DNA from: Hungateiclostridiaceae bacterium UBA1305 | GTDB taxonomy: Bacteria > Bacillota > Clostridia > Acetivibrionales > DTU013 | Direction: 5' to 3' | Length of the DNA stretch: 64,000 nucleotides | NCBI GenBank assembly: GCA_002307275.1 | Contig: DBTX01000021.1 | Coordinates: 8,432-72,431, forward strand | Shown here: positions 19,139 to 57,221 of the stretch, piece after piece | How positions within the stretch are numbered: the first letter of the stretch is position 1 | Layout: every line of letters begins with the position of its first letter | Notes under the pieces: generated by a model | The model's database searches: none | What the model saw: the letters and a program-made list of their open reading frames with translations, nothing else | What the model was told of the DNA's origin: nothing | Program-made: the position numbers and the translations under genes

Positions 19139-20881
19139 CTATTTCCCCGGAATTGCGCCCGATGACTGAAACACATTACCAAAGATGGCCGACCGGAATT
19201 TTTGCAGCAGCTTCAAATCAGATATCAACCCCATCCTTACTAAAAGCCGGATATACGCCTGCTCAATGTCCTTTTCCATGCGCACGGCATAAGCGCCGTT
19301 CAGATTTCTATGCAGCAAACGCCTCCTGCTATATGGAATTTCCCCGAGAAAATTTCCATGAACCGCTTCTCTGGCTTCATCCGGAGTTATACTGCTGGTT
19401 TTGTCATATTCGAAAAGAACAAATTGAGTACGGTGAACACAAAGGTGCTGCTTCTCCTTCAAGAATTCAATATAAGTGTTGAATTCCCGCAGCTGATCCA
19501 CATCTCCCCGAAGTGCCGCAATATTCATATCTGATCCGAGGAGTGCCGCCAGCGTAAACGCATCGTATATGGATCTGTTAACAAGAAATATTGTAATATC
19601 AAACCTTCGATAACACTTCTCAATCAATTTTGGAACAATATCTTCATTAAAATATTCATAATTCTCCAACCGGTAATTGCCTGTCAGCACATGCAGGTTT
19701 TTCAGATCCTTTCTTTGTACGGCTGACTGCTGCAACACCTCATCATCCAATGAGCCCTTTTCCAGTGCGTCCATGACAAAATCCAATCCTGAACGTCCAT
19801 ATACTCCTCCCTGTGATAATTTCACAGGAAACTTCTTCAGGTTAAGAAACAAATCCGCTTTCGGTGCCAGCAAATCCAAATCTGCCAGAAGCACCTCGCT
19901 TTTTGTATGTTTCGCTGCCATATATGCCAGCTCACAGCCGAATTCTGCATTATCCCATACGGTAATCACAAGCTTTCTGAAAATGGCATGCTGCTTTGCT
20001 CCAAAACCTGTACTTACAGCATTTTCTTCAGGTTCACCCTGCACAGTCCGGTTGGCTGTATGAGAATTTTCCGGATTGTTACCGCTGTGCAATTTACCGT
20101 GCAGAGGGCACAAAGCCTCAAGCTCCTTTTGCAGAAGCGCCGCACTCTGATAGCGTTCAGATGCGTTTTCGCGGGTACATTTACATATGATTGCTTCCAT
20201 TTCCGGCGAAAGCTCCTCAACAAATTGCCGGACAGGTTTTATTCCATATGGTGAATCCGCCGGATTCTTCCCTGTCAGCAAATGATGCAATGTTACTCCC
20301 AGACTGTAAATGTCGGAGGCTGCACTGGTCTGCCCCCTGCCATATTGTTCCGGAGCCGCAAACCCCCGTGTACCTATATAAACCGTATCCCCTCCGGACC
20401 GTGCTTTATATTCGCGCGCTATCCCGAAATCAATTAGTTTAAGTGTTCCATTGTCCGTCAATATGATATTTGAAGGTTTCATATCCCTGTAGATGATCGG
20501 ATGCGGTTCGAGGGTATGGAGGTAATCGAGCGCCCTGCATAATTGTACAGCCCATTGTGTTACTGTTTCCTCCGCTATTCGGCCTTCTGCTTCAAGTTTT
20601 TTGTCAAGAGATATTCCATCTATATAATCTGAAACCATGTACAGTTTCCCATCCTGCACAAGTATATCGAATAATCTTGGCAGTGCGGGATGTTCCAGCC
20701 GTTTTAAAAGCTTTGGTTCGGCCAGCAGATCGACATCGGTACCATCCCTCCGGATGATTTCCTTAATCGCCCAGAAGGTATCGGTATTGATATTCTGAGC
20801 CAGATAAACCGTACCCATGCCACCCTGACCCAGTATCTTCAATATTCTATAGCGCCCGTCAAAAATGTCGCCCGCCTGCAT
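19139..20881 (-). CDS. Hanks-type Ser/Thr protein kinase fused to a P-loop-less ParA/TadZ-like domain
   Basis: 580-aa ORF. The kinase signatures GQGGMGTVYLA, AIKEI, HPIIYRDMKPSNIIL, DFGIARE and GFAAPEQ are present. The C-terminal half (LVITVWDNAEFGCELAYMAAK...ITIFLVNRSIYD) resembles ORF 16119..17003. Confidence 0.85.
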   Translation of the reverse strand: MQAGDIFDGRYRILKILGQGGMGTVYLAQNINTDTFWAIKEIIRRDGTDVDLLAEPKLLKRLEHPALPRLFDILVQDGKLYMVSDYIDGISLDKKLEAEGRIAEETVTQWAVQLCRALDYLHTLEPHPIIYRDMKPSNIILTDNGTLKLIDFGIAREYKARSGGDTVYIGTRGFAAPEQYGRGQTSAASDIYSLGVTLHHLLTGKNPADSPYGIKPVRQFVEELSPEMEAIICKCTRENASERYQSAALLQKELEALCPLHGKLHSGNNPENSHTANRTVQGEPEENAVSTGFGAKQHAIFRKLVITVWDNAEFGCELAYMAAKHTKSEVLLADLDLLAPKADLFLNLKKFPVKLSQGGVYGRSGLDFVMDALEKGSLDDEVLQQSAVQRKDLKNLHVLTGNYRLENYEYFNEDIVPKLIEKCYRRFDITIFLVNRSIYDAFTLAALLGSDMNIAALRGDVDQLREFNTYIEFLKEKQHLCVHRTQFVLFEYDKTSSITPDEAREAVHGNFLGEIPYSRRRLLHRNLNGAYAVRMEKDIEQAYIRLLVRMGLISDLKLLQKFRSAIFGNVFQSSGAIPGK

Positions 20882-21148
20882 CCAAATCCCTCACAAATCA
20901 TGGAATATTGTCATATTTTCGGCTTTTGTAGCTGTATAACAATAATGGGTATTTCTATTGTCCTTTAACGCGTCCTATATTATCACAGTCTTACAAAATT
21001 TACCATTATATTTTGCAGTTTTTTATTTATTATGCAGGTAATAGATAGGCAAGAGGCTTATCAGCACTGTAAGAGTGAATTTTCTACTGCAGAAAATAAA
21101 AGAATAAGACGGGAAATAATGCAGAAAGATGATTCATTTTAAACTGAT

Positions 21149-21422
21149 GGGTCACTTCTGATTGAGGTCCGGTGTATATTGGATTGCTCCTGATTGAGGT
21201 CCGGTGTATTGGATTACTCCTGATTAATATCCGGTGTATTGGATTACTCCTGATTAATATCCGGTGTATTGGATTACTCTTGATTAATATCCGGTGTATT
21301 GGATTACTCCTGATTAATATCCGGTGTATTGGATTACTCTTGATTGATGCCCGGTGTATTGGGTCACTCCTGATTGATACCCGGTGTATTGGGTCACTCC
21401 TGATTGAAGTCCGGTATATATT
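21149..21422. repeat. Nine phased units of about 30 bp: eight echoes plus the genuine 3' end of the PflX-like gene
   Basis: Units start at 21149, 21181, 21211, 21241, 21271, 21301, 21331, 21361 and 21391. Three central units are identical (ggattactcctgattaatatccggtgtatt). The last unit contains the gene's stop, TGA being the complement of 21394-21396. Confidence 0.95.
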
Positions 21423-22497
21423 GCTCGGAAGCAGATTCCCTGTCCTGTACAAAGCCATTAAGACCAAGCTTTGCGAATTTATAGGTCACCTTTTCATACT
21501 CGTACCTGGTAAGTCCCCTGCCAAGGACAGGATGCCCACAGGCCTTGTAGCAGGGAGTATACTGGCTCATGAGGCTTACATTTATATCTTTGGGAAGGTT
21601 TTCAGATATCCATTCAAGGACGCGCAGCGTTTCTGCCGTATGACCCGGCAGAACAAGATGCCTGATGATCATGCCGCGCGTCATTAGCCCGCTTTCGTCA
21701 AATTCGGACATGCCGACCTGCCTGTGCATTTCGAGTATCGCTTTGGAAGCTTTGTCAAAATAGTCTTTTGCTCCTGAATACTCCTTTGACACTTCCGGGC
21801 TGATGTATTTGAGATCCGGCAGGTAAATGTCGATGGATCCATCCAGCATTTTTAATGAATTCAGGCTATCATAACCATTTGTGTTATAAACGACGGGGAT
21901 ATCGAGAGGCCTGGGTTGAGTAACGAAATTTGGGACAGGAGCAGCAGGACAGTTGGATTGTCCGCCTCTTTGGACAGAAACAGGAGGGACGAAGGTAGCG
22001 GGAAAGGGAGGGACAGAGGGACAGGTCCTCTGTACCGGAACAAAAGCAAGTGGAACAGAGGACTTGTCCCTCCATCCCTCATACTCGGGCCTTTCCCTCC
22101 GTCCCTCATGTCCCTCCGTCTCCCATGCCGCTCTCGCCAGATCCAGCGCTTCCTTGATGGCAGGCACAAAATGGGAGGGTGTTACAAGGTTTATATTATG
22201 CGCGCCTTTATCCTGCAAAGACAGGAATATTCCTGCAAGCTCCATTATGGACATTTCTTTGCCGATGCCGCCGTGACTGATTTCATGATTCTGACAGAAG
22301 ATGCACTTTAAATTGCAGCCGGAAAAGAACACTGTGCCCGAACCGCGTGTTCCGCTGATACAAGGTTCCTCCCACATGTGCAGAGAAGCTCTTGCAACCA
22401 CTGGCTTTTCTCCCATACCGCAGAACCCTTTGCTCTTTTCCCTGTCGATATCACATTCTCTGGGACAAATATTGCATTTCATACCGATATTCCTCAA
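21394..22497 (-). CDS. PflX-like radical-SAM protein (pyruvate formate-lyase activase homologue, COG1313-type)
   Basis: 367-aa ORF. CNICPRECDIDR...FCG, ASLHMWEEPCISG and FFSGCNLKCIFCQN (CxxxCxxC) are typical of the family. An atypical insert of about 73 aa lies at residues 125-197. Confidence 0.85.
   Translation of the reverse strand: MRNIGMKCNICPRECDIDREKSKGFCGMGEKPVVARASLHMWEEPCISGTRGSGTVFFSGCNLKCIFCQNHEISHGGIGKEMSIMELAGIFLSLQDKGAHNINLVTPSHFVPAIKEALDLARAAWETEGHEGRRERPEYEGWRDKSSVPLAFVPVQRTCPSVPPFPATFVPPVSVQRGGQSNCPAAPVPNFVTQPRPLDIPVVYNTNGYDSLNSLKMLDGSIDIYLPDLKYISPEVSKEYSGAKDYFDKASKAILEMHRQVGMSEFDESGLMTRGMIIRHLVLPGHTAETLRVLEWISENLPKDINVSLMSQYTPCYKACGHPVLGRGLTRYEYEKVTYKFAKLGLNGFVQDRESASEQYIPDFNQE
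21907..22125. repeat. G+C-rich imperfect palindrome inserted in frame in the PflX-like gene
   Basis: On the coding strand, GAGGGA-type motifs repeat in one arm and TCCCTC-type motifs in the other. For example, GGGAGGGACAGAGGGACAGGTCCTCTGT faces ACAGAGGACTTGTCCCTCCATCCCTC. Besides the gene frame, four other track ORFs cross parts of it. Confidence 0.75.
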
Positions 22498-22608
22498 TTT
22501 TCCGCTTTTATTGCTTTACAACACCTATAAATAAAAATATAATAAGGTTAATTATCATACATGTCAATATAACAGGTGAGTTATACTAAGGGCGTGGAGG
22601 ATTGGAAT

Positions 22609-23559
22609 ATGAGAATAAGCGGCGTTACATATGCAGTCAGGAGAACCCATACAGCACGTAATATTATATTAACCATCATTGTTCTGTTGCTTCTCTCAAT
22701 TTTAGCAGTCATCATACTGTCGGGATACATGAGCTGGACACTGCTGCACCCTGAAAAAAAGCCAATAGATACGTTTTCATCAAATATTGTTCCTGAATAC
22801 AGAAATATCAGCTTCAAAAGCACCGATACGTCCATCATCCTAAAGGGCTGGCTTTTCCAGGCAAAGAACAGCGACAAGGCAGTAATCCTTGTACATTCAT
22901 ATGGCAATAACAGACTGCAGTTCGGCATTAAAACAGTTGATATGATAAAGTCATTTCTGAATAAAGGATACAGCGTATTCACCTTCGACCTGAGGAACTC
23001 AGGAGAATCCGGCGGGAAGGACACTACCTTCGGCTTAAATGAAAAAGAAGATGTAATAGCCGCGATAAAATATGTGAAATCCCAGGGATCCAGCCACATC
23101 ACTCTGCTGGGATTTTCGATCGGTGCTTCGGCCAGTTTGCTTGCCGCAGAAAATGATTCAGTGGATGCTGTCATCGCTGACAGCCCTTATGCCGATCTTA
23201 AGACCTATCTGTCTCACGGCCTGAATAACTGGACACATTTGCCTTCAATTGGTTTCAACTACACAGTTGAGAAGTCACTGGAACTTGCAGGCGACCTTGA
23301 TATGAAAAACGCAAGCCCTGTCAATACGCTGACTGCGGAAAACCCGCCGTATCTGATGCTGATACATGGCCGCGGAGATAAATTGATACCGATCGAAAAC
23401 AGTATTGAGTTAAATCAGAAATATTCGGCCCTGAACTCCAAAGGTTCTGAATTCTGGACGACTGACGATGACGGTGATGCTGCAAGCTATATAAAAGATC
23501 CGGATGAGTATATGAGCAGGGTCTTCTCTTTCCTTGAAAGGGTGTACCCTCAGGAATGA
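22609..23559 (+). CDS. Membrane-anchored alpha/beta hydrolase
   Basis: The ATG at 22609 follows GGAGGA. An N-terminal TM helix (IILTIIVLLLLSILAVIIL) is present, with nucleophile-elbow motif GFSIGAS and the downstream pattern ...IHGRGDKLIP. Confidence 0.8.
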   Translation: MRISGVTYAVRRTHTARNIILTIIVLLLLSILAVIILSGYMSWTLLHPEKKPIDTFSSNIVPEYRNISFKSTDTSIILKGWLFQAKNSDKAVILVHSYGNNRLQFGIKTVDMIKSFLNKGYSVFTFDLRNSGESGGKDTTFGLNEKEDVIAAIKYVKSQGSSHITLLGFSIGASASLLAAENDSVDAVIADSPYADLKTYLSHGLNNWTHLPSIGFNYTVEKSLELAGDLDMKNASPVNTLTAENPPYLMLIHGRGDKLIPIENSIELNQKYSALNSKGSEFWTTDDDGDAASYIKDPDEYMSRVFSFLERVYPQE

Positions 23560-56998: not shown

Positions 56999-57100
56999 CT
57001 TCCTCATCTTTCAGGATGTTACTCCTGCAGGAATTGGCACCGCACCATAGGCCGGTTGCCGGGTTTCATAGGGCTCAGTCCCTCCACCACTCTTGATAAG
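56999..57100 (-). promoter_or_regulatory. SAM-I (S-box) riboswitch aptamer controlling metK
   Basis: The minus strand reads CTTATCAAGAGTGGTGGAGGGACTGAGCCCTATGAAACCCGGCAACCGGCC...GGTGCCAATTCCTGCAGG...GAAAGATGAGGAAG. This matches the S-box consensus blocks. Confidence 0.92.
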
Positions 57101-57221
57101 TATCTATTCAATTTTTATTACTTACCGGTAGCCAAAATAAAATTTTGCAAACCGGCATATTTAAATTAACATAAATTATAAACTGCGTCAAGTATCATTT
57201 GACATCTCTGAAACAAAAACG

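Follow-up and report, generated by a model that had tools for sequence, protein, structure and literature searches.

Introduction

Repetitive extragenic palindromic (REP) elements, and the hairpin-forming REP doublets called REPINs, are known together with REP-associated tyrosine transposases (RAYTs) from Escherichia coli and Pseudomonas (Bertels & Rainey 2011, PMC3116915; PMC3337134; PMC5581495), and these REP/REPIN-RAYT systems show a REPtron layout, in which repeats flank the transposase gene (PMC3116915, PMC3337134, PMC3733652). Abundant REPs have been tied only to the proteobacterial RAYT groups 2 and 3; group 1 occurs also in Clostridia (Bertels et al. 2017, PMC5581495). Di Nocera et al. 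2013 (PMC3733652) describe REP units lying in frame within conserved genes, where the affected gene is sometimes the sole modified coding sequence of its species and the repeat sometimes occupies the same site in related species. In this study, we analysed 64 kb of contig DBTX01000021.1 from Hungateiclostridiaceae bacterium UBA1305 (hereafter the window), in which a gene for a PflX-like radical S-adenosylmethionine (SAM) enzyme carries an in-frame palindromic insert. The insert contains a full-length REPIN core of a repeat family that is dense in metagenomic contigs, and we consider it likely that a REPIN was inserted into an already permissive loop segment and is now tolerated and inherited as a disordered loop. 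Compared with the intragenic REPs of that study, the window copy belongs to another repeat family and another phylum, and it comprises a full REPIN doublet with extra arms (a palindrome of about 145 bp), with decayed remnants across a radiation of related genes.

In-frame coding insertion is also the behaviour of the Rickettsia palindromic elements (RPEs), which Ogata et al. reportedly described in 2000 as elements of about 100-150 bp situated in frame in protein-coding genes. They are said to be translated as extra surface segments compatible with protein function, to be confined to Rickettsia and to affect many genes per genome. RPEs find mention in PMC3733652 and PMC10969869. The window insert resembles RPEs in behaviour only: it has no sequence relation to them and no Rfam match, the hosts of its family are Bacillota, and only one intragenic case stands among about 72 testable sites in the matches listed. 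Bacterial MITEs (transposable elements of the miniature inverted-repeat type) such as Correia/NEMIS, RUP, ERIC and Bcr1 (reviewed in PMC10969869) are likewise small, non-autonomous inverted-repeat elements that form stable hairpins and sometimes overlap coding regions. However, MITEs derive from DDE-type insertion sequences and have terminal inverted repeats and target-site duplications, whereas here the arms are inverted, no direct repeat is found at the age-blurred insert boundaries, and the associated gene encodes a Y1 rather than a DDE transposase. The original prediction of this insert, made from the window alone, had spoken of a MITE- or REP-like element; the REP/REPIN half of that description appears to fit better than the MITE half.

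A full-length REPIN core in the insert

The insert comprises 73 codons (219 bp) encoding residues W125-P197, at positions 22125-21907 on the minus strand of the window. It was delimited by alignment, by comparison with an insert-less relative (L088; L numbers denote loci, P numbers proteins) and by an AlphaFold2 (AF2) model, in which it forms a disordered loop. These limits coincide exactly with the stop-free, in-frame insertion of about 73 extra residues that had been predicted at 21907-22125; the reading frame is continuous, and alignment bears out the claim that PflX-type homologues match both flanks.

At 22010-22078, the insert holds a REPIN core of the GGGAC-type family, made up of two inverted 27-nt REP units and a spacer. 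We built a covariance model, R1, from 18 dispersed metagenome elements with the window sequence excluded. R1 matches the core over its full length (model positions 1-68 of 68): the minus strand scores 59.4 bits (E 1.9e-12), the plus strand 58.6 bits and the runner-up in the window 18.5 bits. Genuine full copies from host contigs fall at 57-65 bits. By construction, the left 19 nt have to match, as the search motif was taken from the window; this choice has no bearing on the continuation, the right arm or the spacing. The full-length match thus supports the insertion of a small palindromic element.

The left REP unit, GGGACAGAGGGACAGGTCCTCTGTACC (22010-22036, plus strand; family consensus GGGACAGAGGGACAGGTCCCTTGTCCC), is recognised from the sequence, the family alignment and R1. 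A 15-nt spacer or loop found by the inverted-pair search follows at 22037-22051, and the right, inverted unit, GGAACAGAGGACTTGTCCCTCCATCCC (22052-22078, plus strand; consensus GGGACAAGGGACCTGTCCCCNTGTCCC), is recognised from inverted pairs and R1. Further arms lie outside the core. At 21980-22009, inverted pairs and motif matches identify an outer arm of extra GGGAnnnn octamers (GGGACGAA to GGGAAAGG) that pairs with 22087-22124; such outer octamers also occur in the family members L169, L198, L190, L139 and L117. The opposite outer arm at 22079-22125 contains two direct copies of a 17-nt repeat of TCCCTCCGTCCC-type units, as seen in direct and inverted repeats and in a period of 17 at 22094-22127. 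A putative degenerate REP-like unit, GGGACAGGAGCAGCAGGACAGTTGGATTGTCC, is suggested by the sequence and by direct repeats at 21932-21963 (plus strand) and is not significant alone. A tail of 25 nt at 21907-21931 encodes, on the minus strand, the 3' insert end (..FVTQPRP), which the alignment places in common with L083, L081 and P0002 (VT..RP).

The insert had been described as a long imperfect palindrome, and inverted arm pairs and RNA folding agree with this. The best pair, 22008-22036 with 22052-22080, spans 29 nt at 86% complementarity around the 15-nt spacer, and outer pairs extend to 21980-21995 and 22109-22124. The predicted RNA fold has an energy of -119.5 kcal/mol against -88.4 +/- 5 kcal/mol for 200 dinucleotide shuffles (z = -6.2), and none of the 200 shuffles was as stable. 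The reported G+C enrichment was also confirmed, with 0.53-0.63 in the insert versus 0.40-0.47 in adjacent 100-nt windows and 0.49 over the whole gene. Four other open reading frames (ORFs) do cross the insert, because it is poor in stops (5 stop codons over six frames in the 219 bp versus 15.7 expected), and these extra ORFs are a by-product of composition. An intein or mini-intein reading was rejected: the insert starts with WETEG and ends with QPRP before a leucine, has no splicing motifs and no Pfam domain, and is modelled as coil. An intron or programmed bypass was likewise rejected, as there are no motifs for either, no stop codon and a continuous frame. No Rfam family matches the insert.

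The repeat family and its transposase genes

Scanning JGI metagenome contigs with the 19-mer GGGACAGAGGGACAGGYMC returned at least 120 stretches containing it (L090-L209), clustered in a few anaerobic-digester and bioreactor samples. Among the matches listed there are 116 unique contexts, about 95 of which continue with NNNGTCCC, and the inverted partner is present in 26-43 of them. The family architecture is GGGACAGAGGGACAGGYMCNNNGTCCC, a spacer and an inverted copy. Partners lie at offsets of 12-76 nt, with spacers of about 6-28 nt in aligned full elements, resulting in elements of about 60-80 bp (GGGACAGAGGGACAGGTCCCTYGTCCCA, spacer, TGGGACRAGGGACCTGTCCCCNTGWCCC). Each 27-nt unit, GGGACAGA-GGGACAGG-YMC-NNNGTCCC, is an imperfect palindrome with a 6-8-bp hairpin.

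The family is dense and mostly extragenic in its host contigs. We counted 241 hairpin units in 601 kb (90 non-redundant host loci, 41% G+C), with up to 9 units per ~13 kb on contigs such as L105, L145, L167 and L169; units also form clusters, for example on L167 and L169. Only 25 of the 72 testable motif sites (35%) fall within a stop-to-stop ORF of at least 150 aa, compared with a background of 77%; many of these are at ORF ends, and some copies overlap ORF 3' ends. No frame of the consensus element contains a stop. The PflX gene itself holds the sole convincing internal in-frame copy among the matches listed (L123, which is the same as L083), so intragenic survival is exceptional for this family. 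Apparent in-frame copies in L128, L140 and L177 were discarded as spurious ORFs or chance matches.

The hosts are uncultured Bacillota, judging from a T-box leader in L178 and from a protein fragment that is 100% identical to one on L105 and labelled 'MAG: Bacillales bacterium'. There was no Rfam family match in 16 repeat-bearing loci, literature string searches for the repeat sequence returned nothing relevant, and plasmid, phage and IMG/VR collections contained no match to the repeat. The family thus seems to be undescribed in Rfam and the searched literature.

Two host contigs encode a transposase beside the repeats (L145, 5678-6445; L128, 820-1575). Both genes match Pfam Y1_Tnp with 58 bits, carry HVH and RYIHQNP motifs and are 55% identical to each other; the L145 gene scores 69.9 bits on the NCBIfam model REP_Tyr_transpos (REP-associated tyrosine transposase), below the cut-off of 80. 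In L145, a full repeat element precedes the gene and a REP unit begins two bases past its stop codon, and in L128 repeats stand on both sides in the same arrangement. These REPtron-like loci span 5645-6746 in L145 and 790-1708 in L128, and the Y1 proteins have a C-terminal helix-turn-helix (HTH)-like extension. A sequence search found no solved-structure relative of the RAYT-like protein. Because the repeats are dense, mostly extragenic and twice flank an IS200-like Y1 (RAYT-type) gene, we assign them to a REP/REPIN family of uncultured Bacillota. The substrates of IS200/IS605-type Y1 enzymes are single-stranded hairpins, and no target duplication results from their action. By analogy, an IS200-like Y1 (RAYT-type) transposase probably mobilises the present repeats on single-stranded hairpins.

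The family shares with known REP/REPIN-RAYT systems a short imperfect palindromic unit, a long hairpin formed by two inverted units and a spacer and, in the host contigs only, a high and mostly extragenic density and a Y1 (HUH) transposase gene flanked by repeats. Many dispersed copies are seen in the metagenomic hosts, and the 64-kb window and the close relatives' loci hold only the intragenic copy. There are also differences. The known hosts are Proteobacteria, those found here Bacillota. The REP superfamilies of PMC3733652 have a GTAG or CGTC tag at one unit end, whereas we found no conserved tetranucleotide ahead of the present unit (position -1 is T in 57 of 98 units and G in 4 of 98). 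The present unit has a direct GGGACAGA octamer before the hairpin, its transposase carries the HTH-like extension and falls just under the NCBI RAYT cut-off, and the window copy is intragenic in a region without other copies.

The insertion site in PflX-like proteins

The gene (COG1313-type; 21394-22482, minus strand) was identified from the ORF list, Pfam and an identical database protein. Its ORF spans 21394-22497, and we placed the probable start at 22482 (MKCNIC...) because the identical protein P0001 has 362 aa; P0001 shows 100% identity to the window protein and carries the JGI label 'PflX'. Pfam Radical_SAM (PF04055) matches with 36.6 bits, above its cut-off, and this match is confined to residues 56-121. 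The cysteines of the CxxxCxxC cluster motif (C61, C65, C68) are invariant among more than 80 invariant columns of the homologue alignment, in which homologues align on either side of the insert. The radical-SAM core, that is the motif and the core fold, is intact on both flanks; the AF2 model has a mean predicted local distance difference test (pLDDT) score of 75.5 and confident core elements (pLDDT ~90). The closest solved fold is that of the pyruvate formate-lyase-activating enzyme (PFL-AE; 8fo0/3cb8), to which sequence similarity is limited to the cluster motif; with PFL-AE/PflX (COG1313) proteins the window protein has in common the CxxxCxxC motif and a partial TIM-barrel fold. NCBIfam models of glycyl-radical activases (PflA, NrdG and others) score 16-31 bits at best versus cut-offs of 126-430.

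That family members join the two flanking segments directly was part of the original prediction. This holds, with a short linker, in 78 of the 80 reference genomes encoding relatives, only L001 and L005 carrying an insert at the site, but not in the window's own clade. In most proteins of that clade, which is marked by the gene order hydrolase-PflX-kinase, this very site carries an insert that varies between 10 and 100 residues; a few proteins have none, and inserts of relatives span 0-100 residues. Between L210 and L211, whose PflX genes are 97.2% identical, a 117-nt in-frame indel affects the same loop (gene position ~353-478), and the longer allele has neither a palindrome nor a repeat signature. 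Inserts like that of the window lengthen proteins, break domain matches and spawn spurious overlapping ORFs.

The idea of a tolerated surface loop gains support from the AF2 model, in which the insert, linking helix 108-123 to strand 202-206, is low-confidence coil (pLDDT below 50 at residues 129-187). In (beta/alpha) barrels, helix-to-strand loops sit at the barrel end opposite the active site, and tolerance of the insert would fit this location. We also compared the insert DNA of seven close relatives. In only two inserts, those of the window (z = -6.6) and of L083 (z = -3.4), is the fold more stable than in shuffles. The inserts of L081, L084, L086, L087 and L089 have z-scores close to 0, and L088 lacks an insert. 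We therefore rejected the notion that inserts at this site are palindromic in general.

Other loops of the family vary as well. Low-complexity inserts of 20-80 residues follow the CxxxCxxC region in L008, L019, L027 and L063 and follow QVGxPxF in L009, L010, L011 and L016; the PflX-family members with such inserts include those of Eubacterium ramulus, Roseburia and Butyrivibrio. The PflX family is thus generally permissive to loop expansion.

Homology and decay of the insert among relatives

Homology at both ends links the inserts of the window, L081 and L083. The 16-mer GGGACAGAGGGACAGG of the window occurs twice, identically, in the L083 insert, which scores 21.7 bits on R1, and the 21-residue insert of L087 keeps GGGACAGGCA as judged by eye. 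The +1 frame of the family consensus reads GQRDRSLVP, to be compared with GWRDKSSVP in the window, GQRDRYIVP in L083 and EDRSLVPF in P0002. Since relatives hold homologous, decayed remnants at the same site and four-fold sites of the window and relatives' genes are only 56-58% identical (0.56-0.58), the insertion appears to be old and inherited and to predate the radiation of these genes. The original prediction had counted a homologous segment in orthologues as evidence against an insertion; the closest orthologues do contain one, in the form of decayed remnants, yet this leaves the insertion unrefuted.

The same comparison bears on two other origins. A chimera, in which repeat-containing reads were mis-joined into the gene, has to be considered for a metagenome-type contig, as repeats can mislead assemblers, but it is hardly credible here: independent assemblies from other samples have homologous inserts at the same codon (P0002, P0004/L081, P0005/L083, P0003/L087), the reading frame is unbroken, and conservation extends to both junctions. 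It is also very improbable that the palindrome grew in place by slippage and inverted duplication (template switching) and resembles the repeats by coincidence. The loop is indeed hypervariable and repeat-prone, with a 75-bp tandem duplication in the L083 insert and tandem peptide repeats in P0048 and P0067, and a 30-bp tandem array of 8.8 units lies at the 3' end of the same gene. However, an in-place origin would not account for a full-length model match at E~2e-12 that covers both arms with the correct spacing, for the identical 16-nt signature or for the same frame-specific peptide in three relatives; local duplication may explain the extra outer octamers, not the core.

Several observations weigh against the neutral inheritance of an inserted REPIN. 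The original prediction had suggested looking for other copies of the insert in the same genome; in the window, neither the three motif searches nor a covariance-model search run free of filters located another, and copies came only from the DNA of other organisms. There is no RAYT homologue in the 64 kb either. About 25 kb of close relatives' loci contain no extragenic copy, and in PflX loci of other genomes, 509 kb in all, we counted five hairpin-like units, of which two belong to the L083 insert; the window lineage is thus no evident host of the family. The alignment that had been suggested for defining exact boundaries and any target-site duplication gave neither: no duplication was convincing, and the boundaries are blurred by age. 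More distant relatives carry inserts without the repeat signature at the same site, and loop expansion may be older than the element. In the family, 87.7% of arm positions are paired and arm covariation is not above shuffles, which is why we make no claim of a selected RNA structure. The insert is probably translated, giving a flexible surface loop of 73 residues. Finally, the window copy is better preserved than the orthologous remnants, which could reflect selection or later re-insertion rather than neutral inheritance.

Re-insertion would alter the history only. The preserved REPIN would then have arrived recently and secondarily, in a variable loop or a REP remnant older than itself, which we think rather unlikely. 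Its core is far better preserved than the L081 and L083 remnants, unrelated inserts occupy the site in more distant relatives, the extra REP-like units outside the core suggest nesting or clustering, and REP clusters are common in host contigs (L167, L169). Yet no source is visible, with neither a RAYT nor another copy in the 64 kb and the relatives' loci, and the peptide GWRDKSSVP aligns in frame with the remnants in L083 and P0002.

Selection, in turn, could have kept a stable hairpin, in mRNA or as a DNA cruciform, as a regulator, the alternative raised in the original prediction, or the encoded loop may have gained a function. A translation pause, an RNase III target and an mRNA stabiliser or attenuator are the regulatory options, and like the proposal as a whole they seem doubtful to us. 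Relatives do without the hairpin, as their z-scores near 0 and the insert-less L088 indicate. The window arms are ~83% identical to the family consensus versus ~74% expected neutrally, an excess that is suggestive but lacks significance over the 54 positions, which were counted by hand. The proposal would account for the strong fold and for a window copy that scores like copies in repeat-rich hosts when L081, L083 and L087 retain heavily decayed remnants and four-fold sites approach saturation. REPs are reported to influence mRNA stability and termination (PMC3733652), and on the gene strand the REP unit at 22078-22052 is followed by a T-rich run, ACTTGCTTTT, which together form a weak intrinsic-terminator pattern inside the coding region; however, the count of terminator-like sites equals the shuffle expectation.

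Gene neighbourhood

A promoter-like site, TTGACA-17-TATTAT, lies upstream of the gene at 22539-22567 (minus strand) and is proposed from a consensus match only. The gene order of a divergent alpha/beta-hydrolase, the PflX-like radical-SAM enzyme and a Ser/Thr protein kinase (window ~19139-23559) recurs in the relatives L081, L084, L088, L210 and L211. A T2SSE-type ATPase comes next in the window contig and in the contig of P0002. The flagellar genes FliD, FlgN and FliS are found near the PflX region in the window contig, and a FliD-like gene near L084/L085. The tandem array at 21154-21419 (8.8 units of 30 bp) overlaps and directly follows the radical-SAM stop codon. Its units are divergent versions of the last ten codons of the gene with the stop (..EQYIPDFNQE and stop, then PNTPGINQE between stops, on the gene strand), and the array was not found in nine relatives' loci. 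At 57001-57102 (minus strand), the window contains a SAM riboswitch (RF00162, 83.7 bits).

Discussion

We propose that the 219-bp insert derives from a GGGAC-rich, REP/REPIN-type element of uncultured Bacillota, which would be mobilised by a RAYT-like Y1 transposase by analogy with IS200/IS605-type enzymes. A copy would have landed in the helix-strand loop of a PflX-like enzyme, in an ancestor from which the window organism and its closest relatives descend. Purifying selection may have spared the insertion because the element has next to no stops in any frame and its length preserved the reading frame; it also would have reached a loop that is disordered, accepts indels and lies on the barrel side remote from the Fe-S/SAM site. 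Vertical inheritance since then would have been accompanied in sister lineages by decay, tandem duplication (L083) and trimming or partial deletion (L086-L088), and in the window lineage by the retention of a near-intact palindrome, enlarged by extra octamer repeats. The window element is most likely a passenger without a dedicated function.

Two bolder readings are that the GGGAC repeats are an undescribed high-copy REPIN-RAYT system of Bacillota and that the intragenic hairpin is actively maintained in a lineage from which the family has otherwise been lost, either by selection on RNA or DNA structure or by what may be arm-to-arm templated repair. We regard these readings with considerable scepticism; if the hairpin is maintained, it would be a datable, exapted REPIN.

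In-frame insertion of such repeats is already known but uncommon, and the REPIN-RAYT-like family of Bacillota is the more novel by-product of this work: densely repeated, REP/REPIN-like and accompanied by a Y1 transposase of its own, it belongs to a phylum outside the Proteobacteria, the group whose study has yielded nearly all that is known of REPIN-RAYT biology. For the enzyme, a passenger insertion of this kind would mean that a selfish palindromic repeat turned into coding sequence and persisted through a species radiation, which may be one route to the birth of disordered loops. Because the copy in the gene and the remnants in its orthologues are alignable between species, they would make it possible, as is rarely the case, to date a REPIN and quantify how it decays.

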